The notes beneath the pieces are model-generated. The model was given only the letters and a program-made list of their open reading frames with translations, was not told the origin of the DNA and ran no database searches. Below are positions 4,870-63,968 of a DNA stretch of 64,000 nucleotides, in pieces (position 1 is the stretch's first letter; each line of letters opens with the position of its first letter). A program made the position numbers and the translations under genes. Source of the DNA: a virus (taxonomy: Duplodnaviria; Caudoviricetes); the IMG/VR virus record IMGVR_UViG_3300028797_000007, positions 32,001 through 96,000 of that record. One strand, 5' to 3'.

Positions 4870-4902
4870 AATAAAAAGAGAGGGGAATTATCCTTCCCCT
4901 CT
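4870..4902 (-). terminator. Intrinsic terminator after the FN3 tail gene
   Basis: AGAGGGGAA/TTCCCCTCT hairpin with a T-run. Confidence 0.65.
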
Positions 4903-6455
4903 TAGTGCTCATTGTCATTAAGCTTTCATTGACCATTAACTTTAATATATAACTTCTTAGCTTTTACCCAAGAACCATTTATTTTTATATAAGTTTTTCC
5001 TTTAACCCATTGACCATCTATTTTTCTTCTAATTTTAGCTTGGTCTGCAGGAGTCTTAACAGTTAAAGTCTTTGTCGCTGTAGTATCAGAAGCATTTACA
5101 CCAGTATGGATAGCTTTCACTTGAACTTTCATATTATATGTAGTTTCTTCATTTAAACCAGTCCAATTATAAGAACTGCTTGATTGATAAGAAGTTCATG
5201 TTGAGCCTCCATCTTTACTAAAGCGATATTTTAAAGTCCTACTAGGACTTATAGAAGCACTACAATTAATAGTGCAAGAAAAAGGCAATAAATTACTAAC
5301 CGTAACACTTGAAATAGTTGGATTAGTTAATAATGTAGAATAATTATATACGGTAGCACTCGTAGTAGTACCACCAGCATTTGTAGCCTTGAATCTAAAA
5401 TCATAAGTTGTATCAGCAGATAAGCCTGTTATAGTACCAGTATTAACTGCTCCTAGAGTTTTACTTGTCCATGTTGAACTAGAAGGTAACTTATATTCTA
5501 CAACATAATTTGTCATCGTTGTACCAGTAGCACTTAATCTAACTGAAATTGAGTTAGTAGTACTAGCAGTTCTTTCCATTGACAAATTTGTTGGAGCATC
5601 TCAAGCAGTTTGAAACACTACAGTTTTTTGTGCTGCTCCCTGAGAAGTTGTTCAGGGTCCTGTTGTATTATTAGGAGTTACTCCACTAACACTCGCTAAA
5701 TGCATGTATTGACCCGGAGTAAAATTCCTAAATGCGAAAGGCCTTTCTATATAATAACTTGAGGCCGGCTCATTAGAAACACGAGTATAACTACTTCCAC
5801 CATTACTAGAAAATTCTACAGAACCGGCTGTCCCAGTGCTATATGGTTCACTACCATCTGGAGCAAGTATTTTTAGATTAAAACCATAACTTTGACGACT
5901 AGCGCTTAATGTAGTATCAACATTACTTGTTACACTTGAATTATAATAATGAACTACATTGTAAATATTGTTATCTGGTCCACTAGCATTACCGTATTTT
6001 CAGTATTCTACCGAACTGCCATGAGCCACTTGCTCATTTACTCATACTCAAGGAGTCCCATAATTACCATAACAATCCATGTTTTTGATTGATAGCTTAA
6101 CTGTTTTCTTAGGTAACTCATCTGTACTAATATCTGCATAACCAGAAGCGCTGGCTGTTTTTCATTCCCCAGTACTTCAATTAGTATAACCACAAGTCCA
6201 ACTTCCGTCTACTCTATACGAAGTCTTTGGTGACAAATTAGAAAAAGTTGCTGTACCTATATGCGTAGAATTTGGACCATAAAAAGTCATACCTTGAATA
6301 CTACCTGATTGAGTTTGCCCATTACAAGTAATAGACCAGCTACCATTATTAATTCCTATTAAGTCCCAACCAGAGCTACTACCTCCAGCATAAATATAAA
6401 TAGTAAGAGAGCTACTAGTAGAGCTACCTTTTGCAACCGAACATGTCCATCCCAT
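4902..6455 (-). CDS. Fibronectin type III-domain tail protein (TGA=Trp)
   Basis: Three track ORFs share one frame joined across about 9 TGA; FN3 motif GLSADTTYDFRFKATNAGG; C-terminal W-x-K-x-NG-x-W repeats; TAA at 4902. Confidence 0.8.
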
Positions 6456-6473: not shown

Positions 6474-9400
6474 TTAACTCTCTATTAAAATATATAAATC
6501 TCCATCTTTACTACCAGAGACAGTAGTTGGTGCTGAAGTACCATAATATGTATTAACACCCTCTGCAGCAATTTGAGCAGAAGTGTTTGTTCTAATTTTT
6601 GAAGCAGTCCATAATACTTGGTTAGATGTACCGCTATCATTTACTGTATAAGTATTTTGTAATTTATTAGCAGTTAAAGCAACATCAGCACTATCTGCAC
6701 GAGCTGCATATTTAACTCTTTTTTCTATTGTATTATCAACATAATCTGACACTAACATGTAATTATTTAATGATACTGAAGCAAATTGTAATTTATAGTT
6801 ATCTGAACTATCTTTTCCTAATGTAATCATTTTACCTAAGTTAGCTTCATTATATGTTACTTCAGTGTCGGCTAAATTAGCAAAACTTGTAGCTCCACTA
6901 CCGGCGACAGCTGCATTAATTGTAGCTCTACCATCAGTAACAGTGACTGTTAAGTTATCACCAAAATTCCATTCGTTAATCTTGTTCCAGTCTGTTTTTG
7001 CTACAAATGATAACCAATAATCAGTTTCAACTGCACTACCAGCTACAGCCGTAATAGTTAAATCCTCTTCTGTACTACTAGAAGGTAATTTATAAGTTAA
7101 AGTATCTAAACTAGGAGTATAAGTTAATATAGTATTTGCTACCATTGAAGAAGTGGCAGTAAATTTATACGAATTATTATTATAAGTAAAATAATAAATG
7201 TGTGCTGTTAAACCTCCAGATGGAACTGTATATTGATATTTAATTGCACTTGTATCTTGAGTTGTTCCTCCACTAATATAAGGTCCTTGTGTTCCACTAT
7301 TATAAACCTTATGGTAATGATTTTTAACTAAATCATAAACATTGGTTCCTAAAACAGTTTCTTCATTGCCTGCTGTATAAGTTACTTTACCATCTGCTAG
7401 ATGTCTTAATGTAATACTTCTATCAATTGGTGTAAAAGTAACTTGGTCTACGTCCGAATATCCCGATGCATCTTCAGTAGATACATAAACTGGTAAATCA
7501 AATACTCCTTTATCTCCATTTGAATTAGTACCATAATATTGGTCTGCAGTAGCATGGTCTAATACAGATAAATGGTCTGCTATTAATGCCCTATCTACTG
7601 CACCTGCATATAAATCAGGTCTAGCAGTTGCATTAACAGCGAATTCACTTCTTAGTAAGAATTGATTTGGGTCTGTTTGACCTACACATTCAATTGTTGC
7701 CACTCTGTTCGATGTATCAACATTTACGTTAGCACCAAAGGTATAGAATTTTAATGCTGTTACATCACCTAAATTAGTTGTTTCACCTGGGTTAGAACTA
7801 CTTCCACCTATAGTTTGAATACTAATATCTTCTAATTTTCTAGACAACTCATTAATAGTATTATCAGGTAATCTATCTGAACGTATACGTCTTTCTTCGT
7901 CTGGAGTAACAAATACTCTTTGTGTACCGTTTAATAACTTAATATCATCAGTTGATAAATTATGAGGATTAACAACTGTATGTGCTGAAGCAGAATCATT
8001 AGCTGAAATAGTATTCATATGGTTTTTAGAAGCAACTACATCAGTATTTTGACTAACTCTTTCTTGTGTGAACCATAAATTAGTTGCACCACCTAAACCA
8101 TCACCTTCGTTTATATCTCCTGTCATTAAGACTACGGTCTTGGCTTCATTATTATTTGTATTATCACCAAGTCTATAACCATTAATAGAAGTATTTTTAT
8201 GTACCTTATATTTCTCTACATATTGTATTCTACTTTCATGGTCTGCTACTTGTAAATCTATATTATCTAATCTATCTTCAGCATGGAACAATCTATATCT
8301 TATGCTTTGTTCGTATCTTTGTTTATTACTATTATCTGTTGACCATACTTCTTTTTCTAAGTCTCTTAATCTATCTCTAATATAGGTTAAATCATTATCA
8401 TCTGCTAACTTATAACCAGAAGTTACTGTATTATATGTACGTAATTCATTTATTGTTTTGGTAACATTAGTTGTTATATTATCAGTAATATATTTTTTAG
8501 TATCACTATAAAGCTCTCTTGTTACATGAGAAGGTAAAAAATCTAAACTATATAAACCTTGATAATTTTCATTTTGTAAATCAAATAAATCGAAACGTAC
8601 CATAGCTGGACTTGCGTCAGCTGCATCACCACTATATAATTTAAAAGCAGTGTCAGCGAATTCTGGACTAATAGTACCTACTTGACTAATGCGTCCTAAA
8701 GTTAAAAATCTACAACAATTTGCATCATCAGTTGTAAAAGTTTCAACACCTTCAGCCTTACCTAAAACAATACGAGTTGCTTCAACATAAGGAAATTCTA
8801 TATCTATACCAAAAGTATCATTTATATTTGATAAAGCATCTGTCATAGAATTATATACTTGTGTACCATAAATAATAATATTTTCTCCATTAGGAGTAAC
8901 TAAATGTTGTTGAATTGTAAAATGTCCATCTGGGACTGCCTTTAATTCAGTACCATCCCAATATAAATTGTAAAGCAATGTACTTGTAACAATCAAATCT
9001 TTGGCTAAACCATTATCTGGTATCATATATACAAAATAAGGACAAGGTGATTGCTCGTCATAATGTTTTAAGTTAAAATCACAGCCATTATCTGTATCTG
9101 CTGGGAAATTATCTGTTAATCCAATTGTATAATTAATACCTTCATCATAATAATAACCTGGACGTCTAGCGGCATTAGCGGTATTCATACCAGCTGTAAC
9201 TAAGTTCATACCTATAGCTTGTCCGCCATTAACCATAAAACTACCTCTATCAGCAGTATAAGCTATATCAGGTAAAGTGTATAAGCAAGTACCCATTACC
9301 GTACTACCTAATTTATTTTCTATAATTTTATTAGTATTATCAACTAAGAAAGTACCAATAAAAATATGATTTGTATCATCTGTTGCAGGCATTCCTGGAA

Positions 9401-9908
9401 TTATACTATAAGCACCAGTATAATCAGTAAATATTGAATAAGCACCAGCTCCTGATACTGATGATACTATATTAAGTGTAGTCGCATCTATTTTATACAT
9501 ACCTTTTAAATAACGACCATCACCCTCTTTGTTTTTGAAATAAACTAACATTGCTGGCATGTTAATAATTTGTCTTGTATCGTCTGCTAATGTCATAGGT
9601 CCTTCTAACACTACGGCTCCCGAATTTAAGAAACCTTGTCTAAATGTTTGACCAATATCCATTATTTTATGCCATTTATCATCAGTTTTTGAATAACGAT
9701 AAAATTCACCACTTGACACTACATAACAAACTTGTCCATCTAGTGGGTCTGGTACTGCATACATGTCAGTAATTGTACTTACAACCCCGTTCTCCTCAGG
9801 GAACACTAAGTTTGTATTAGCCATACTGATGGCATTTAATAATCTTCTAAAGTTCTCATTAAGTGGAGAGGAAGTTATAGGACCACCTATTCTAATAAAA
9901 TCTTGCAT
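6474..9908 (-). CDS. Large minor tail/baseplate protein, 1144 aa
   Basis: Long intact ORF between Dit and the tail fibres; central coiled coil; C-terminal DGDLYI motif. Confidence 0.7.
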   Translation of the reverse strand: MQDFIRIGGPITSSPLNENFRRLLNAISMANTNLVFPEENGVVSTITDMYAVPDPLDGQVCYVVSSGEFYRYSKTDDKWHKIMDIGQTFRQGFLNSGAVVLEGPMTLADDTRQIINMPAMLVYFKNKEGDGRYLKGMYKIDATTLNIVSSVSGAGAYSIFTDYTGAYSIIPGMPATDDTNHIFIGTFLVDNTNKIIENKLGSTVMGTCLYTLPDIAYTADRGSFMVNGGQAIGMNLVTAGMNTANAARRPGYYYDEGINYTIGLTDNFPADTDNGCDFNLKHYDEQSPCPYFVYMIPDNGLAKDLIVTSTLLYNLYWDGTELKAVPDGHFTIQQHLVTPNGENIIIYGTQVYNSMTDALSNINDTFGIDIEFPYVEATRIVLGKAEGVETFTTDDANCCRFLTLGRISQVGTISPEFADTAFKLYSGDAADASPAMVRFDLFDLQNENYQGLYSLDFLPSHVTRELYSDTKKYITDNITTNVTKTINELRTYNTVTSGYKLADDNDLTYIRDRLRDLEKEVWSTDNSNKQRYEQSIRYRLFHAEDRLDNIDLQVADHESRIQYVEKYKVHKNTSINGYRLGDNTNNNEAKTVVLMTGDINEGDGLGGATNLWFTQERVSQNTDVVASKNHMNTISANDSASAHTVVNPHNLSTDDIKLLNGTQRVFVTPDEERRIRSDRLPDNTINELSRKLEDISIQTIGGSSSNPGETTNLGDVTALKFYTFGANVNVDTSNRVATIECVGQTDPNQFLLRSEFAVNATARPDLYAGAVDRALIADHLSVLDHATADQYYGTNSNGDKGVFDLPVYVSTEDASGYSDVDQVTFTPIDRSITLRHLADGKVTYTAGNEETVLGTNVYDLVKNHYHKVYNSGTQGPYISGGTTQDTSAIKYQYTVPSGGLTAHIYYFTYNNNSYKFTATSSMVANTILTYTPSLDTLTYKLPSSSTEEDLTITAVAGSAVETDYWLSFVAKTDWNKINEWNFGDNLTVTVTDGRATINAAVAGSGATSFANLADTEVTYNEANLGKMITLGKDSSDNYKLQFASVSLNNYMLVSDYVDNTIEKRVKYAARADSADVALTANKLQNTYTVNDSGTSNQVLWTASKIRTNTSAQIAAEGVNTYYGTSAPTTVSGSKDGDLYILIES

Positions 9909-9921
9909 CTTAGTGCACCTC

Positions 9922-11433
9922 CTATAAATATCTTGGTTGTAGTTCAGCGCTTAATTTAAACGCCCCTACACTAGAACCCCTATTTGTAGTTCCATTTGTA
10001 CTTCTATAATTTATATTTTGACCAGTTGTTATAGTTAAAACATCTAGGTCTACTATGGTAGCTCCAAACATTCTATATACTGTTGTATAGTTACCATATT
10101 TATCTCTAAAATCATCTTTACTAGAAAAATAATTTGTTTCCTTTCATTCTCCTGGACCTCCAGCGCTTTTTAATACTCAAACATACCATTGGTCATCCTT
10201 AACACAGACATCTCCTTCGTTAGCTGAAGAAGGTAAGTTTCCATTATTTATTTCTATATAATTAAAAGCAAAACCAGCGGGTCTAGTCACAACTCCACTA
10301 CTTATAGTAGGAGCTGGTATATCAGCAGTATAGGTATTACTATCTAATATTAATGTATTATTTTCTAAATCTACCGATTGAATTTTACTACCTCCATTAC
10401 CATTACAACAAAAATATTGTCCTAGCATATCATTATTTACTTTTAAAATTAGAGGATTTATAGAAACAACATTATTTTCTATATAAAAACTATCATACTC
10501 TATTAAATCAGTATTTTCCATATCTCTAACCCAAGTCTCTGGGATTTCTATTACACTACGATATGGATTTATACTCATTGCCGTTCCACTAAAACGACCA
10601 TAATAAATATCACCGTTTTCGTCTTGTAGTATTTGACCTACTGTATCTACAATAATATCACCTGAACAATTACTTAAATCTATTACTGTAGAGCTTCCTG
10701 TATGTGCATTATTAAATTGAATATAACTATGATTAGCAAATGTTCCAGTATGCTCTATTAAATACTTAGGTGATGATGAAGCACTACCTGGATTATACAT
10801 TGGTATTAAATATTTATTTGCATTTGCTGGTATATCTCATTCGCATTTAGGACTCATATCTTTATATAAAAGACCACTATTGTAATAATAATCAACTCCA
10901 TAGATAGTTCTAGCATCATAGATTAAATCATCTCTATAATATGCTAAACCATAACCATATGCTGAACCAACCGTTTCAAACGTTACTGTAAAATTACCAG
11001 TATAAACTGCATCTCCTTCGGCATAATCACCTAAAAAAGAATGTTGAGGCGTCTGAATAGTAGTTAATGGATAAGCTCCTAAAGTTGAAATACTAGCGAC
11101 TTTAACCAAATAATATTTATAAGGTTGGTCTGATAAAACTAATCTTCCGACTTTACGAGGGCTTAACCAAGCTCTCATTCTATCATATTCAGAAGAAACA
11201 AGGTCGTGACAAAAACAAGTAAATTGAAATTGTTGACCAGTTATTTGTGTACCATAATAATATTTACCATCATATGCTGGTACTTCTAATTTATTATCTG
11301 AAAATGTTGGCTCAATATTAAATGTATATACTGCTCCACTAGTGATATTATAAATACCCATATTAGCGCAATCTTTGCCATCAAAAATAAATGTAGAAAA
11401 TAACTCGCCAGCTTTAACTGCTCTTATTGCCAT
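9922..11433 (-). CDS. Distal tail protein (Dit-like) (TGA=Trp)
   Basis: 10837..11433 and 10177..10800 joined across TGA, continuing to TAG at 9922; FIFDGK...MGI...VPAYDG...GRLVLSDQPYKYY typical of Dit; directly follows the TMP. Confidence 0.75.
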
Positions 11434-11522
11434 ACTTTTCCCTCCTATTTCTTTAATCTCTCTAACAATTAGTAGTTAGAAAAGAATAAAAATAAAAAGA
11501 CGAGGAGCTCATGCTCCCCGTT

Positions 11523-14500
11523 CTATAATGTATTTTTAAAACTATTTATTTTAATACCTGTTTGGTTACCAATCTCTTTAAACTTGTTAACAAATGCATC
11601 GAATGCTTTTTCTCCATCTTCTACAGAAGACATCGAATCAACATTGAATGAAATATTATCAATAGAAACTGAACTTGCACTATTTCCTGCAATATTATTA
11701 GTACATACTTTATCTAAAACATCTACAAATTTAATAAAATGTTTAGTTTGTAATGCACTTAATACCATCTCTGGATTTTGTGGAGAACCGTCTAACCAAC
11801 TAGGACCTGTATAATTAACTAAGCCGCCATTAGCATGATGTGGCATACTATAAGGATTAACAGGTAAATTAATACCAGTATTTGAACTAAAAGCATTAGT
11901 GTAAGTTGGTAGAATTGAAGTTGATTGTACAGCTTTCCACATTGCTTTAACCGTTTCATTTTGTGTAGGTTTATAAGTATAACTTCCCATAGTACAAATA
12001 CCCAAAGAAGGTATATCCCAACCAGTAAAGGTATATCCACTTCTTGTTAGAGAAGGTAAAGTAAGACTTTCACCTTTTTTAACATATTTAACCTGACAAC
12101 TACCCATGCCAGTGTCTAACTGTATAGTATAAGTTATATTATCACTACTACTATTGCCAGCTCCGGTGCTAGAATAAGTAGAAGTATTGTCTGCTGTTCT
12201 ATATCCTCCACCTACTTGAGAAACTGCTGAGCTAACAGCCTTAGAAATAGCACTACTAGTATCGCTTTGCCAACTTTTAATAGTCTGAATAATTTCTTTA
12301 CTGTTTTTACTCATGCTATTTGTTAGGCTAGTATCTAATTTTTCAATTTGGTTTCTGGTTTCACCAATATTTTCATATATATCGAATATTGATTTTCCAC
12401 CTTCTAAACCAGACATATAAGTTTGATAATTAGTATTCCATTCATCTAATAACTGCTTACGTTGTATCTCGGAAGATGTATTTCATTCATCAGTTTGTCG
12501 TAATAGTTCTGTTAAACGAGTGTCATCTTGCATAACAGATTCATCTAATCAGCCGAATAACCAATCCATATTATCTCATAATTGGTCAAACTCTTCTTGT
12601 AAAGCCTTTTGTTCTTTATCAAGCTTATCTGTTATATCATCAAGCATTTTACTATATTTATCTTCTGCTATATCTTCTAATTTGTCTTCTATGTCTTTTT
12701 GTGCTTTAATAAATTCTATATCTGAAGCCCCAGAAGTATCCATCATTGCTCTTTGTAAATTAGTTTGTAAACCAGATACAGCTTTAGCATTTTCTTGGTC
12801 TTTTCTAGCTTCTTCACGAGCTTTACGTAAATCTTCTATAGCTTCTTTTTCTTTGTCTATGGCTTCTAATTTAGTATCTAATATTTTTTGGTAGATTTCT
12901 TTAACAGCATTTGCTGCCTTATTTTCCATATCAACATATTTATCTACCATTTCTTGCTCTAAATCAATAACTTTCTTTAAGTAAGCTATATATTTGTCAA
13001 AGTCATCTTGTAATTCTTTAAACATATCTGTATAAGTATTATATACATCATCTGCTTTTTGTTTTAAAGTAACTTCTCCATCAGCTGCCTGGTCTTGAAG
13101 ATTTATATATTTTTCCCAATTTATAATAATTTGACCATATTTATCAAAATCAAAAACTCCTTCTAAACCTTCTACTGTATTAATAAAATCTTTATATCCA
13201 TTAGTAAATTGTTTTTGTTCATTTACTAGGAATTCATATTGGTTCATTAATTCTTTATTATAGCTTAATCTTTCTTGTAATAGTTTACCATATTTTTCAC
13301 CCTGAGAAACATCAGCGTAAGTATCCAATGTACTCAATCTATGTTCTAATACTTCAATACGATTTAATATATTATATATTTCTTTAAGCTGACCAATATA
13401 TGTTTCAATCTTTCCACTGTCAGCTTTACCACTACCAAGTTTGCCTAAATCAGAATTATATAAGTTTTCAAGGAATATCATCTGTGCTTCTACATTTTTC
13501 TTTTGAGCTTCTAGACTAGCTCTAGTATTTGATAAACCTTGATTATATTTCCTTAGCGCAGCTGCAGCCTGTTCACGTTGTTCTGTTGTTAATATTTGTT
13601 CTTCGTCAAATCCAGTAGAATCTAAAGCTGTTCCACCTTGCCATTTTATTTTTTCTCTAGCTTTCCATACTTCATTTTTTAATTGACCTATGCTAGTAAA
13701 TTGTCCTGTTAATAATTTATTAAATGCTTCACCAACTGCAGCAACACCGTCTATAGTTTGTGTAGCCCATTGAGCAGAACCTTCTGCCATGTGGTCATAT
13801 GTTATTGCTAAAGCTTGGTCAACCTTAGATTGATTTTTTCCATATTCTATATTTGCTAGACTTTTTGCTTTAGATAATGTAACTTCTGTTTGTGTACTAT
13901 CGGTTAAATAATCAATAGTAGCCTTATTAGCATTTATTTCTGCATCATAAAAAGCTATTTCAGCATCTAGTTCAGCATTTTTAACTTTTAATTTATCAAT
14001 AGTTTGAGCAATTTGAGCTTTAGTAGCAATCTCTTGTATATCTTGTAATGACTTGATTGCATCCCCTTGTGCAGTAATAAGACCTTTGCTTGCATCAAAA
14101 CCTAAATTTAAGTTATCTAATGCTTCGGTATACTTAGTTAAACTAGTAGGGTCTAATTTTGTTATATCTATACTATCTAACACTTCTGTTAAACTAGTAA
14201 ATTCATCTAAAGTCCAAGCACCATTTTCTGCTAATGATTTAGCTAAATCATTTAATGTTCTTAATTTTTCAGAAGCATTATCTAATTCTTTTGATAAATC
14301 TCCCCATGAAATAGCAGCACTATAACCTAATGATTTAAAAGCTTTTTCTTGTATATCTCTAGCTTGCTCAATTAATTTATCTCCTTTAATTGTTCCGTTA
14401 TCAATACCTTCTTGAATTGCATCATATAATGCTCTAACGCCTTCTTCTCCACTCATTTCAAATGCTGCTTCAATTTGAGACATTCGACCTTTTAATGCTG

Positions 14501-33182: not shown

Positions 33183-34346
33183 CTATAGTTTAGTTGCTTT
33201 CTTAGATGCTTTTCTCAATTCTCTCTCTTTTCTTCTCTCCTCTTTAGCCATTTTATTTTCATAAACGCAATCTTTACAAATTTCCTTAAATGTCCCATCT
33301 TGATATTTGCCAAAATTTAATTCATGTGCGTATAGTTGTCTTCCACATTGTGGACATATTTTCCATTTAGTCATGTTTTCTAATGTACCATTAGGTCTAT
33401 GTGTTCTTTCTTCCCATCATAAATATGCTTGCTTAGCAATTTGTTTTGTAATATGTTGTTTCCATATTGTGCTGATATAATTAACACTATATGTTTTACC
33501 ACCCATTTTTTCTAAATCACTAACAATTTGTTCATTTGGTACATGATTAATTTTTTCTTCTAAAATTAATTTATGTTCAGGTGAAAATCTAGTTCTTTCA
33601 ATTAATTCATCTAAGAAATTATACATTTCTCACCATGGATGGAATGGATTATCTGTAGTCTTAGCTTTCATTCCTGAATAATATTTCAACATGGCATGTA
33701 TATGTTTCCAATTACCATAATCTACTTGCATCTCATAATCACATAAAACATGTGGTCCTATACACATTCCTATATAGTCTGGTTTTTCTGTATGAGAAGG
33801 AAGAACTCCAGTATTTCCTACTGGTGGTCTATAACTATCTTTAAGTAAGAATTGTTCTCTTCTTAAATCTATCATTCATTCTCTTAAAAAATATTTAGTT
33901 TGATATGTTGGAACTAATTTTCTATTAGGGTCCATATCTCTTTTACCTTCTAATACTTCACGACAATATTGATATTGCTCAGATATTAAATCTATAGCTT
34001 CCCATAAATCTTTCATAAAAGGTATATCTGCATCTTTTTCTCTATCTATTGTTGGTCTAGGAACTCTATATATTGATACTTCTTGACTTTTTTGTACAGT
34101 AGCTTCTCCTAATGCAGTTTCTATTAATGTCTCATAACTTACTTTCTTTTTACTCCCTTCTTTCAATTCTACTTCTGCATCTACATCTTCTGCATATAAA
34201 AGATAATTTGCTACTTTGTCTAATTCAGAAGGAGGACATAAAGATAATAATCCTTGCTCATCTAAAAAATTAACTAATCCTAATCTTTCTTGATAAGCTT
34301 GTAAGTTAAAGTCTAAATAACTTGCAATCTTCATTTTTACCTCCAT
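33183..34346 (-). CDS. Hypothetical protein with C-terminal HTH-like region and Zn ribbon (TGA=Trp)
   Basis: Four track ORFs in one frame joined across TGA at 33876, 33630 and 33417; CPQCG...CKDC. Confidence 0.7.
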
Positions 34347-41899: not shown

Positions 41900-42169
41900 C
41901 TAACGCACTTTTTGTTTTGGTATGCCCCCTTTTAAGCCTCCCTCTAATGAGTAGTTAAGGAATTTAACCATTTCTGTGCCTCTTAGGATTAGAGCTGCCT
42001 TGGTCTTATCTACTACCCCTTTTCTGGCTAATGTTAATACCATTGATTGTGCCTTAAATTCAGTGTAGCCTTTTCCTAGCATATCTGCTATTTGTTTTGG
42101 TGTTGCCATACCTTCGTTTAATACTCTTACGATTTTTTCCTCGTTATGTGTCAACATCATAATGCTCAC
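41900..42169 (-). CDS. Small winged-helix protein (divergent paralogue 2)
   Basis: LTHNEEKIVRVL...TPKQIA...LTLARKGVVDKTKA. Confidence 0.6.
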   Translation of the reverse strand: MSIMMLTHNEEKIVRVLNEGMATPKQIADMLGKGYTEFKAQSMVLTLARKGVVDKTKAALILRGTEMVKFLNYSLEGGLKGGIPKQKVR

Positions 42170-42771
42170 GCTCCTTTCCTTTTTTCCTTAGCATTATTTC
42201 TTTATTACAATTATATTATACTACGACTTGGTGCCGTTTTTCAAGTATTTATTTCATATTTCTAGCATATTTTTTGTAGGTGTGCACTCCTTGCCTTGTT
42301 CCCCCATATTTGGAGGAGGTATCCCTGTACCAGCATATTTGCTGTACGGCACTGGACTGTGTCCGTAAAGGTTTGACAGGACTTGACTACCCGTCCACTA
42401 ATCCCCAAGGACCTACTATATGCAGCCGTTCCTAACGTGTTAGGCCATAACTCGCCTCTTCTTTTAAAGTCAAACGAGGAGAAAACTCGGCTCTGCCTTG
42501 CCTGCCAGGCTTATCCATCGCCCTGATAAGTGGGAACGCTAACCCCACGACCTAGCGTTTAGTCGGCTCGTGTATTTAACCACCCTCAACGAGTCATTGG
42601 AAAGGGAATCACCCCTATTGGTTGTTTGCAAACTAGTGTTTTTTACCTATCCTAATACGCAGTCCCGAAGGCACTGGGATACAAGGTTCGCTTCCTTGGT
42701 CCGCGGTCAAGGATTTAAGATAGCCTACAAAACTTAAATCCCTCAACGCGAACTAAGCAAGTGCTTAGTTA

Positions 42772-51148: not shown

Positions 51149-51392
51149 ATATATAAAAACGGCATTTTGAATAGTAATATTGTATCTTAGGTCAAGTAGA
51201 TTTTCTCCGTGAATTACAGTCCGTTACCAGAGCTGCGCTTTCGCTTCAAAATTACGACATGGGGTCACCCCTCATATAACTTGATTACCACTTAGTATAC
51301 ACTTTAATCTATCAAAATTAACGCTCCGGACTGTTTCAGTAGTTAGCTAAACCGAGTTTCCTCACCGGAATGACGCGCCGTTACTATCAAAA

Positions 51393-54008: not shown

Positions 54009-54085
54009 TGGTGCAGGAGGTAGGACTTGAACCCACGACCAGAGAGATATAAGCTCCCCACTCTAACCAACTGAGTTACTCCTGC
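54009..54085 (-). tRNA. tRNA-Ile(TAT)
   Basis: Anticodon loop CT-TAT-AT; body similar to the adjacent Ile(GAT). Confidence 0.85.
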
Positions 54086-55417: not shown

Positions 55418-55513
55418 TGGCAGGGGCTATAGGATTCGAACCCATACCCCGGGCTTTGGAGACCCGTCTTTACGGTTTTGAAGACCGCTGTGCTACCATT
55501 ACACTAAGCCCCT
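55418..55513 (-). tRNA. tRNA-Trp with two anticodon arms: UCA (reads UGA) and CCA
   Basis: AGGGGCT TA GTGT-AATGGTA-GCAC A GCGGT-CTTCAAA-ACCGT AAAGA CGGGT-CTCCAAA-GCCCG GGGT ATGGG-TTCGAAT-CCTAT AGCCCCT G CCA. Confidence 0.85.
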
Positions 55514-60635: not shown

Positions 60636-61140
60636 AATTTAGCTATATACACAGACGTGTGTGATATAAGGTTACAACTGGGACCAAACTACCAGTGATG
60701 CCCTGATGCAGGCTAAATTGAATGCATCGGCCTATTATGGGGATGTTTCGGTTTCGACAGGAACTAACGAACACTCATGAAACAAGTCGCAGGTATGCGT
60801 TAAATCCAAACCTAAAAAAATAAATGGAAACATTTTTTCTAAAATCGCTAACAGAGTAAAATCTGTTTTCACTGCAAATGCAGTTGCTTTAGCATAGTCT
60901 AAGGCGTAGGCGACTTTCATATGAGTAGTCAGGAAGTGGACAGACAAAAATATGAATGTATTAACTTAGCAAGGTCCACCAATATTGAGATTTCCTAAAA
61001 CAATTTCTCTATTGATTTACTAAAAGTTTTAGGCTACCCCCAAGATTTGTTAATTGGGTAGGGTAAGTAGATAGAACGAAATTAACTAAGCTTGTAAGAA
61101 AGTAATGACTAGTAAATTGGTTTTTGGACACGAGTTCGAT

Positions 61141-61814
61141 TAACTATAGTCGACCTAATAAGTAATTATTAGTGGAAAAGTAAACTCAAGACGGTGAAGG
61201 CTAAGTCGTAAGATATGCTAACGCTGCGCTAAACCTATTGGAAACAATGGGGGAACGCCCAGAGACTCAGAGAACACCTAAGGATTTAATCTATGGTGTC
61301 GCTCGGATGGAAAAAACGATATTCAAAATCTCTTTTATGTGCTTTCATTTCATCGGTATATTTACCATTTCTTGGTGTTAAGTTATTATATTCATTAACA
61401 AGAAGATTTGCTCGATATACTTTTGAAGGTTCAAGCATAAAAGGAAGCACTTTAGGTAAAAGATTTAAAACCTTATTACCAACTAAAGTCCAGTGCCAAC
61501 TTTGTTTATGATTTTCTTTGTAAACTTTGTTGGATACTATGGTTCCTCCAAAGTGAGATTTTAAATATTCTAAAAAAGAATAAGTTGTGCTAGTTACTGA
61601 CAATGTTGGATAACGGAATTCATTATAACTATGTATTTTAGTTAAGGTAATTGTCCCTTCTCCATCAATTATTCCAGCTGTGTAAGCATACATTATTTGA
61701 TTTTCCATAAATGTTTACCTCCTATATTTGGAATAGGGTTATATATCCCTCTATTCTAATAGTATATAGGATGAAGGAATAGTCCAAACTTTTATGAAAA
61801 TAGAAGATTATTTG
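61141..61814 (+). mobile_element. Group I intron in the tmRNA T-loop
   Basis: Exon ends in U, paired to G of the IGS (TCGAT/GTCGA); R element CAGAGACT; S element GAATAGTCC; terminal G at 61814. Confidence 0.85.
61286..61708 (-). CDS. LAGLIDADG homing endonuclease, antisense within the intron
   Basis: YAYTAGIIDGEGTI motif; own AGGAGG RBS. Confidence 0.85.
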   Translation of the reverse strand: MENQIMYAYTAGIIDGEGTITLTKIHSYNEFRYPTLSVTSTTYSFLEYLKSHFGGTIVSNKVYKENHKQSWHWTLVGNKVLNLLPKVLPFMLEPSKVYRANLLVNEYNNLTPRNGKYTDEMKAHKRDFEYRFFHPSDTID

Positions 61815-63429: not shown

Positions 63430-63903
63430 ATGAAAAAAAGTAGAATAAGAGAATTAAGCGACCAAGATTTCTGTGCTTTAGTAGCATCTAGTTATTCATA
63501 TAGTGATATCCTTAGGGCCTTAAAATTAGGGACAAAAGGAGGTTCATCTACGGATATACTTAAAGCTCGCATAAAAGAATTAGGATGTTCAATAGAGCAT
63601 TTTAATAGACGCAAGAGTGAAAATGTAAAAAATATAACTCAACCTTTAAGTACCATATTAGTAGAGAACTCGTCATATCATAACATTTCTCGTCTAAAAG
63701 AAAGACTTATTAGAGAAAAGAAATTAGAATATAAATGTGCTATATGTGGCAATCCTGGAACTTGGCAAGGTAAAAAGCTATGTTTACAATTAGACCATAT
63801 TAATGGTATTAATGATGACCATAGATTAAATAACCTAAGATTTTTATGTCCTAACTGTCATTCTCAAACAGATAATTACAGTGGGAAAAATAATAGGGGG
63901 TAG
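63430..63903 (+). CDS. HNH endonuclease
   Basis: CAICG...LQLDHING...DHRLNNLRFLCPNCHSQT; stop codon lies inside tRNA-Trp. Confidence 0.88.
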   Translation: MKKSRIRELSDQDFCALVASSYSYSDILRALKLGTKGGSSTDILKARIKELGCSIEHFNRRKSENVKNITQPLSTILVENSSYHNISRLKERLIREKKLEYKCAICGNPGTWQGKKLCLQLDHINGINDDHRLNNLRFLCPNCHSQTDNYSGKNNRG

Positions 63904-63968
63904 GCGACGGTTGCCGACGAGTCTCCAAAACTTGTGTCGAGTGGGTTCAACTCCTACATCCCCTGCCA
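63895..63968 (+). tRNA. tRNA-Trp(CCA) with compact D arm
   Basis: AGGGGGT/ATCCCCT-G-CCA; CGAGT-CTCCAAA-ACTTG; T arm GTGGG-TTCAACT-CCTAC. Confidence 0.75.

Follow-up and report, generated by a model that had tools for sequence, protein, structure and literature searches.

UGA is read as Trp in Mycoplasma, where tRNA-Trp(UCA) and tRNA-Trp(CCA) genes stand in tandem, and by the opal suppressors of E. coli, which derive from tRNA-Trp. Anticodon-arm mimics bound by a synthetase also occur outside tRNAs, as in the E. coli thrS operator. In yeast, an anticodon-like hairpin in an mRNA is bound by histidyl-tRNA synthetase (HisRS; PMC6542539), and the nematode nev-tRNAs, which have a variable arm and Gly or Ile anticodons, are charged with Leu (PMC3333845). 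A survey of recoded phages reported TAG-to-Gln and TGA-to-Trp recoding and no others, leaving open how the host synthetases charge phage suppressors (Borges et al., 10.1101/2021.08.26.457843). More recently 213 phage suppressor tRNAs have been tested as transcripts in E. coli extract, unprocessed except for trimming by RNase P, with the sequence and fluorescence of each given in the supplement (Seki et al. 2025, 10.1101/2025.10.30.685624). Here we describe a 96-nt tRNA gene on the minus strand at 55418-55513 of a 64,000-nt stretch of phage DNA (the window), which comprises bases 32001-96000 of the 111,499-bp IMG/VR record IMGVR_UViG_3300028797_000007, a genome with direct terminal repeats that is rated 100% complete. 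The tRNA has a Trp-type body and two complete anticodon arms, one with UCA (arm 1) and one with CCA (arm 2), and is probably a UGA-to-Trp suppressor in which arm 1 decodes while arm 2 gives the CCA identity triplet to the tryptophanyl-tRNA synthetase (TrpRS) of the host.

In these features, namely its similar size, tRNA array, late-gene TGA, UCA suppressor and lack of a synthetase, the phage resembles the TGA-to-Trp 'Agate' gut phages of about 127 kb (Borges et al., 10.1101/2021.08.26.457843), while near-identical tRNAs from cattle metagenomes suppress UGA (Seki et al. 2025, 10.1101/2025.10.30.685624). That recoded phages carry suppressor tRNAs is already known, and near-identical sequences have been published and tested; the two-arm architecture and its meaning appear to be new. 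Neither of these accounts mentions a second anticodon-like arm and, in agreement with the initial annotation, we found no description of one in any tRNA in full-text literature searches, which did not cover subscription journals. In the Mycoplasma and E. coli cases a duplication likewise lies behind the new decoder, but there the duplication is of entire genes and U34 is accepted by the synthetase, whereas the phage has duplicated the anticodon arm alone, within one molecule. The thrS operator and the HisRS mimic share with arm 2 an anticodon-like hairpin, outside its anticodon context, that the anticodon-binding domain of a synthetase reads or, for arm 2, would read; they are, however, regulatory mRNA elements, and the phage arm belongs to a tRNA that takes part in translation and would function in charging. 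Like the nev-tRNAs, the phage tRNA would have its identity set by extra arm and body, uncoupled from the decoding anticodon. In contrast, the nev-tRNA arm acts by its presence and orientation for LeuRS, with a different amino acid being inserted, and the phage arm is a sequence copy of the cognate anticodon.

ARAGORN called the gene as a 96-nt tRNA with the anticodon UCA, and its score with the Rfam tRNA model RF00005 was 61.2 bits (gathering score 29). It has five helices, all of which covary, and shows the cloverleaf of a tRNA, in which the acceptor, D, anticodon and T arms are present and the T loop has the form UUCRANY. The 5′ acceptor strand AGGGGCU (55507-55513) pairs with AGCCCCU (55422-55428), giving A1-U72, G2-C71, G3-C70, G4-C69 and G5-C68, and is followed by a D arm of class I type, GUGU-AAUGGUA-GCAC, with a 4-bp stem and 7-nt loop (55490-55504). 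A26 separates the D arm from arm 1, GCGGU-CUUCAAA-ACCGU, which comes directly after it (55472-55488, with the anticodon UCA at 55481-55479). A purine-rich linker, AAAGA (55467-55471), 4-7 nt long in homologues, leads to arm 2, CGGGU-CUCCAAA-GCCCG, a copy of a tRNA-Trp anticodon arm with a 5-bp stem and 7-nt loop (55450-55466, with CCA at 55459-55457). The next 4 nt, GGGU (55446-55449), match the tRNA-Trp variable loop in length, and their last U could pair with A15 (A15-U48). The T arm AUGGG-UUCGAAU-CCUAU (55429-55445), the discriminator G73 (55421) and an encoded 3′ CCA (55420-55418) complete the molecule.

The Trp identity set of B. subtilis and E. coli comprises G73, A1-U72 and the G2-G5 pairs, with the anticodon among the major elements (PMC9976931). 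G73, A1-U72 and G2-C71, G3-C70, G4-C69 and G5-C68 are all present in the 96-nt tRNA, bearing out the Trp-type body recognised in the initial annotation. CCA is absent from positions 34-36 of the anticodon arm, where the arm beneath the D stem has UCA, and is confined to the second arm. Both arms had been described as fully paired, which is correct once one wobble pair in each is counted, namely the topmost pair of arm 1 (G-U) and the pair beside the loop of arm 2 (U-G). The accompanying claim that a hybrid of the two would not pair applies to the outer two pairs, which do not cross-pair, and not to the three loop-proximal pairs, which are identical in both arms. When either arm is taken out with one linker (22 nt), the remaining 74 nt are called by ARAGORN as tRNA-Trp(cca) or tRNA(tca), such that either arm does give a canonical cloverleaf. 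Folding of the single sequence was uninformative: the minimum free energy structure (−32.1 kcal/mol) does not contain the cloverleaf and has no significant stability (z = −1.07), and the five-helix cloverleaf (−31.5 kcal/mol) lies 0.6 kcal/mol above that minimum.

The label that ARAGORN gives the gene, 'SeC(tca)', follows from the UCA anticodon and the long extra arm and from nothing else. These two features, with G73, are what would be expected of a Ser/Sec-type opal suppressor charged by seryl-tRNA synthetase (SerRS), a reading that we regard as barely credible. The acceptor and T helices are 7/5 instead of 8/5 and the D stem has 4 bp instead of 6, and as such the molecule has neither the 13-bp acceptor/T domain (8/5 in bacteria) nor the 6-bp D stem of tRNA-Sec (RF01852). 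Among the overlapping clan members in Rfam, the best match was to the general tRNA model and not to tRNA-Sec. In-frame TGA codons align with Trp, with Ser found opposite them 0 times in the forward and 3 times in the reverse comparison with sister phages, and SerRS charging is unlikely because published mass spectrometry reported Trp. The 96-nt tRNA shares with the class II tRNAs (Ser, Leu, bacterial Tyr and Sec) a fifth helix between the anticodon and T arms, in a group in which the extra arm contributes to synthetase recognition. It differs from them in having a class I D arm, linkers of 5 and 4 nt around the extra arm and a 7-nt copy of an anticodon loop in place of a loop of 3-6 nt; the short-loop variable arm, closely flanked stem and class II D arm that mark class II are all lacking. 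Its presumed reader is also of another kind, an anticodon-binding class I enzyme and not SerRS, LeuRS or TyrRS.

The distribution of the second arm was examined by a pattern scan of IMG/VR that required both loops and the T loop, which returned 21 contigs, and by two further scans without the second-loop requirement, one anchored on the UCA loop plus the T loop and the other on the D arm only. The fetched loci totalled 2.3 Mb and 1223 tRNAs, with 157 unique Ser, Leu and Tyr tRNAs from the same loci serving as controls. In the D-arm scan, all 15 long tRNAs with a Trp-type D arm had UCA in the first loop and (C/G)UCCAAA in the second. Over all fetched loci UCCA was present in the extra arm of 31 of the 35 unique long tRNA(UCA), mostly in a 7-nt loop, the four exceptions having 8/5 helices, G1-C72 and the look of true tRNA-Sec; true tRNA-Sec from these scans lacks an anticodon-like CCA loop. 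The second loop is more than chance, as its exact 7 nt are found again, on differing stems, in at least 20 independent assemblies, and as none of the 157 controls, whose variable-arm loops are mostly 3-6 nt, carries CCA in that loop. Bacterial tRNA-Sec matches to GUCCAAAAG (Caulobacterales, Bryobacterales and others) were discarded as pattern artefacts, since their UCC is part of the stem and their loop reads CAAAA.

An assembly artefact is ruled out by the occurrence of the same design on more than 40 independent viral and gut metagenome-assembled genome (MAG) contigs, the gut MAG bins being those of Bacilli, Coriobacteriia and one Treponema. UCCA loops also occur on at least two other body types, such versions being carried by Bacteroides contigs. 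No match to the tRNA locus was found among cultured-phage records (blastn, INPHARED). On a 1.48-Mb contig of a cultured isolate, Bacteroides neonati MS4 (NZ_HG726020.1; L272:2962-3012), there is a tRNA(UCA) that combines A1-U72 and G73 with a GUCCAAA extra arm and would offer a laboratory system for the two-arm class if it belongs to a prophage.

Alignment of 22 homologues supported selection on both arms, as had been proposed from the single sequence. Over the five helices 98.2% of cells are paired, with a covariation score of 0.435 against 0.119 in shuffles, none of the 500 shuffles scoring as high. A1-U72 and G73 are invariant in 22/22, while the other acceptor pairs covary; the D stem (helix 2) is 98.9% paired, and the T stem (helix 5) is 100% paired and covaries. 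Arm 1 (helix 3) is 98% paired and arm 2 (helix 4) 94%, with three of the five pairs changed on both sides in each case, and the outer pairs of arm 2 use four pair types (CG, AU, GC and UA). A hybrid helix, in which the 5′ half of the arm 1 stem would pair with the 3′ half of the arm 2 stem, was rejected, being 65% paired. The UCCA loop is kept in every homologue, contrary to what would be seen if the second arm were not conserved, and the whole loop is CUCCAAA in 19 of the 22; in this phage it is mounted on GGGU/GCCC and in most homologues it stands as GGU-CUCCAAA-ACC. As such the Trp version has the conserved, centred loop with the cognate anticodon and the covarying stem that provisionally define an 'identity copy' class.

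In two sister phages the two-arm tRNA lies near an ordinary tRNA-Trp(CCA), 4 nt from it in G002 (8971-9145) and about 400 nt from it in G003 (42162-42731). The neighbour in G002 has the anticodon stem GCGGU/ACCGU, which is the arm 1 stem of the two-arm tRNA. This identity suggests that arm 2 is the added copy and that arm 1, in which C34 would have become U, is the original arm. If arm 2 were no more than the relic of a tandem duplication, kept as structure with a loop sequence of no function, it might look much as it does, in that arm 1 with its linker and arm 2 with GGGU form two 22-nt units whose loop-proximal pairs are shared. This is nevertheless quite improbable, since the stems have turned over with compensation while the loop is unchanged in distantly related lineages (about 20 shared proteins at E<1e-20), and UCCA loops sit on other bodies as well. 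The ordinary extra arms of the same phages, in contrast, have loops of 3-6 nt that are often GNRA or UUCG.

The genome that carries the tRNA is TGA-recoded, with TGA read as Trp, as the initial annotation had stated. Open reading frames (ORFs) that are split under code 11 become joined under code 4, chiefly in the minus-strand late/structural block at 656-34346, which holds most of the in-frame TGA of the window and encodes a Dit-like tail protein, portal, large terminase, a sigma-like factor and others (PHROG). Across ORFs of at least 100 codons, the whole genome has 82 in-frame TGA against 274 TGG, with TGA in 36 of 84 ORFs, and about a quarter of the tryptophans of the phage are written as UGA. 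The tail-like protein at 4902-6455 was too variable for such comparison, no homologue being found in four of five sister phages, and whole-proteome comparisons were used. Against three sister phages, Trp was the commonest residue opposite TGA (14), followed by Tyr and Phe, much as for TGG, with Ser and Gly rare. The sigma-factor-like gene at 33183-34346 (minus strand; phrog_5767, E = 8e-19) has three in-frame TGA, and this putative transcription factor would thus itself depend on the suppressor tRNA.

The two-arm tRNA is the sole UCA tRNA among the 26 tRNAs of the genome and, with a stop-codon anticodon and that codon in frame in the phage's genes, it has the properties of a suppressor tRNA. 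The genome also encodes an ordinary tRNA-Trp(CCA), single-armed and built on another body (63895-63968, plus strand; ARAGORN), which lies 8 kb from the two-arm tRNA on the opposite strand. No class Ib synthetase of family PF00579 (TrpRS) was found in this complete genome, nor in the ten other records with a two-arm tRNA (0/11). A single complete record with a single-arm tRNA does encode a PF00579 enzyme, which at n = 1 is too few to count as evidence.

The function of such tRNAs can be judged from the published screen, in which tRNAUCA-6 and tRNAUCA-3 are the tRNAs of loci L010 (sister phage G002) and L008 and differ by 3 and 4 nt from the window tRNA. In tRNAUCA-6 these differences are one U-A to U-G change in arm 2 and one compensated T-stem pair. 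The two gave 76-84% of wild-type sfGFP above background at UGA, values that belong to tRNAs 3-4 nt from that of the window and not to its exact sequence, and tRNAUCA-3 was the positive control of the screen (Seki et al. 2025, 10.1101/2025.10.30.685624). By our own reading of the same table, all 13 tRNA(UCA) with a CCA extra arm are active at UGA, reaching 33-84% of wild type above background with a median of 68%, as against two of 12 standard-length, single-arm tRNA(UCA) above the same cut of 25,000 relative fluorescence units (RFU), with a median of 5% (Fisher p = 2e-5; Mann-Whitney p = 2e-4). Trp was identified at UGA by mass spectrometry for all 13 active tRNA(UCA) analysed, a set that is not matched by ID to the 13 two-arm tRNAs (Seki et al. 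2025, 10.1101/2025.10.30.685624). The two phage tRNAs accompanied by a TrpRS of their own (AP1 and HF2) are single-armed and inactive with the E. coli enzymes (Seki et al. 2025, 10.1101/2025.10.30.685624).

These data are in keeping with a division of labour between the two arms. Arm 1, directly below the D arm, would pair with UGA (and UGG) on the ribosome, allowing the in-frame TGA genes, mostly those of the late/structural block, to be translated. Arm 2, acting with the Trp acceptor set (A1-U72, the G2-G5 pairs and G73), would present the equivalents of C34-C35-A36 to the host TrpRS, such that Trp would be charged although the decoding anticodon is not CCA. As the phage brings no synthetase, charging would fall to the host's own enzyme. 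Two geometries may be envisaged, in one of which arm 2 would serve as a variable arm that is long and flexible. In the other, the equal-sized arms would swap in a five-way junction so as to place the CCA arm at the anticodon position on the enzyme; such an exchange is plausible because the arms are of the same size, share the same junction and, in the case of arm 2, are followed by a 4-nt stretch of tRNA-Trp length.

Several points weigh against this reading. In the screen the two-arm tRNAs also carry good Trp acceptor stems, so that the arm is confounded with the body and its own contribution was not isolated. Two single-arm tRNA(UCA) with A1-U72 and G73 reach 37% and 71% of wild type, and the E. 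coli TrpRS does not, therefore, strictly need an extra arm. A variable arm also points away from the anticodon, such that the anticodon-binding domain could not reach arm 2 without arm exchange or an unusual mode of docking. That TrpRS contacts arm 2, and that arm 2 has a role in charging, is moreover what we infer from the comparative and published suppression data, with which the CCA arm as a handle for the TrpRS of a standard-code host, as first proposed in the initial annotation, is consistent.

The equal size of the arms, and the canonical 74-nt cloverleaf that either gives in silico, would also suit a tRNA in which both arms enter the A site, UCA for UGA and CCA for UGG, or in which flipping or processing of the molecule times UGA read-through, the latter having been raised in the initial annotation. 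We consider both versions very improbable. A U34-C-A anticodon already reads UGG by wobble, the host supplies tRNA-Trp and the phage has a tRNA-Trp(CCA) of its own. A switch, in turn, is at odds with the activity in extract of near-identical transcripts that undergo RNase P trimming alone and with the lack of any timing signal seen at the tRNA locus; we also know of no bacterial pathway that excises a 22-nt arm.

A TAG-recoded sister phage bears on the preferred reading, that arm 1 decodes and arm 2 serves the host TrpRS. A scan for a CUA version of the tRNA returned one IMG/VR record, G006 (IMGVR_UViG_3300028805_000058), a genome of 146 kb whose portal is 29% identical to that of the window phage. 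Its sole CUA tRNA (L302:10262-10354) has a Trp-type body and a GUCCAAA extra arm and adjoins a tRNA-Trp(CCA). Opposite TAG in G006 the sister phages have Trp (55) or TGA (14) at 69 of 171 ungapped positions, followed by Tyr and Phe, with Gln outside the top 15 aligned states, indicating that TAG is read as Trp in G006. Trp identity therefore survives there the loss of C35 in the decoding arm.

Comparable second loops are found on tRNAs of other identity. About a dozen tRNA(CUA) with Gln-type bodies in the published screen have 7-nt extra loops of the form CU-CUG-AA or CU-UUG-AA, and most are active at UAG (tRNACUA IDs 14, 31, 41, 56, 104, 109, 135, 139, 147, 148 and 155 of the supplement; Seki et al. 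2025, 10.1101/2025.10.30.685624). A Gln-type tRNA(CUA) among the loci fetched here (L228:13850-13937) has the extra loop UU-CUG-AG, and nine unique long tRNA-Ile(UAU) have an extra arm showing a centred GAU (L037, L136, L161, L165, L178, L210, L223, L238 and L240). In the window itself, the tRNA-Ile(UAU) at 54009-54085 has the normal length and no GAU arm. In one phage, L223 (tRNAs at 6630-12584), many tRNAs whose anticodons are ordinary have gained a short hairpin with a GNRA-type tetraloop (GAAA or GUAA) in the variable region, including those for Glu, Thr, Lys, Met, Ile-GAU, Gln and Leu, the GAU loop being found on tRNA-Ile(UAU) alone. The pairing of Trp with CCA, Gln with CUG or UUG and Ile with GAU means that the second loop tracks the amino-acid identity of the body over three anticodon-reading class I synthetases. 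It is tentatively suggested, though we think it unlikely in this full form, that recoding and rare-codon phages use a general two-arm design in which exchanging arms offer the cognate arm to the synthetase and the decoding arm (UCA, CUA or UAU) to the ribosome.

The same comparison bears on the idea that arm 2 serves another reader of the Trp anticodon loop, whether an enzyme such as MiaA that modifies the loop, a T-box leader of host trp genes that senses tRNA-Trp or a host anticodon nuclease for which it would be a decoy. Arm 2 reproduces the tRNA-Trp loop and the three pairs that close it without change, which would suit any factor that reads this stem-loop, and phage tRNA arrays are often tied to defence against tRNA-targeting nucleases, a link that fits a decoy. 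Such a reader is nonetheless improbable, if less so than the relic, as the second loop matches the identity of the body in the Trp, Gln and Ile systems, for which the charging enzyme is the most obvious common partner, and the arm accompanies strong suppression in a foreign (E. coli) extract with unmodified transcripts. Many of the Ile copies also have U at the equivalent of position 37, such that modification of A37 is not a general function of these arms.

Two further RNAs lie in the window. The minus strand at 51164-51318, between tRNA-Glu and tRNA-Phe, strongly matches the 3′ domain of OLE RNA, scoring 102.5 bits (gathering score 50) over positions 437-594 of the 616 in the model. OLE RNA is an RNA of anaerobic and extremophilic Firmicutes, of which a fragment-sized phage copy was unexpected, and its presence in the tRNA array hints at a Firmicute host. 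A phage tmRNA is located at 60747-61142 on the plus strand (47.6 bits against the Rfam gathering score of 47), and tmRNA genes are present in the sister phages G002, G003 and G006 as well.

If arm 2 does serve charging, a spare-arm copy of the cognate anticodon would be a simple and portable answer to the problem of having a suppressor charged by a host that uses the standard code. It would explain the absence of a phage synthetase and the retention of Trp when the decoding anticodon becomes CUA, and why tRNA finders label such genes 'SeC' or miss them. The question of charging is directly testable, near-identical tRNAs being already in a working cell-free assay. Were the arms in fact to exchange, any anticodon-reading synthetase could charge a tRNA for an arbitrary codon, the TAG-to-Trp sister phage being a natural case of this. 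For genetic-code engineering, these phages suggest a natural way to uncouple the choice of codon from recognition by the anticodon-reading TrpRS, GlnRS and IleRS.

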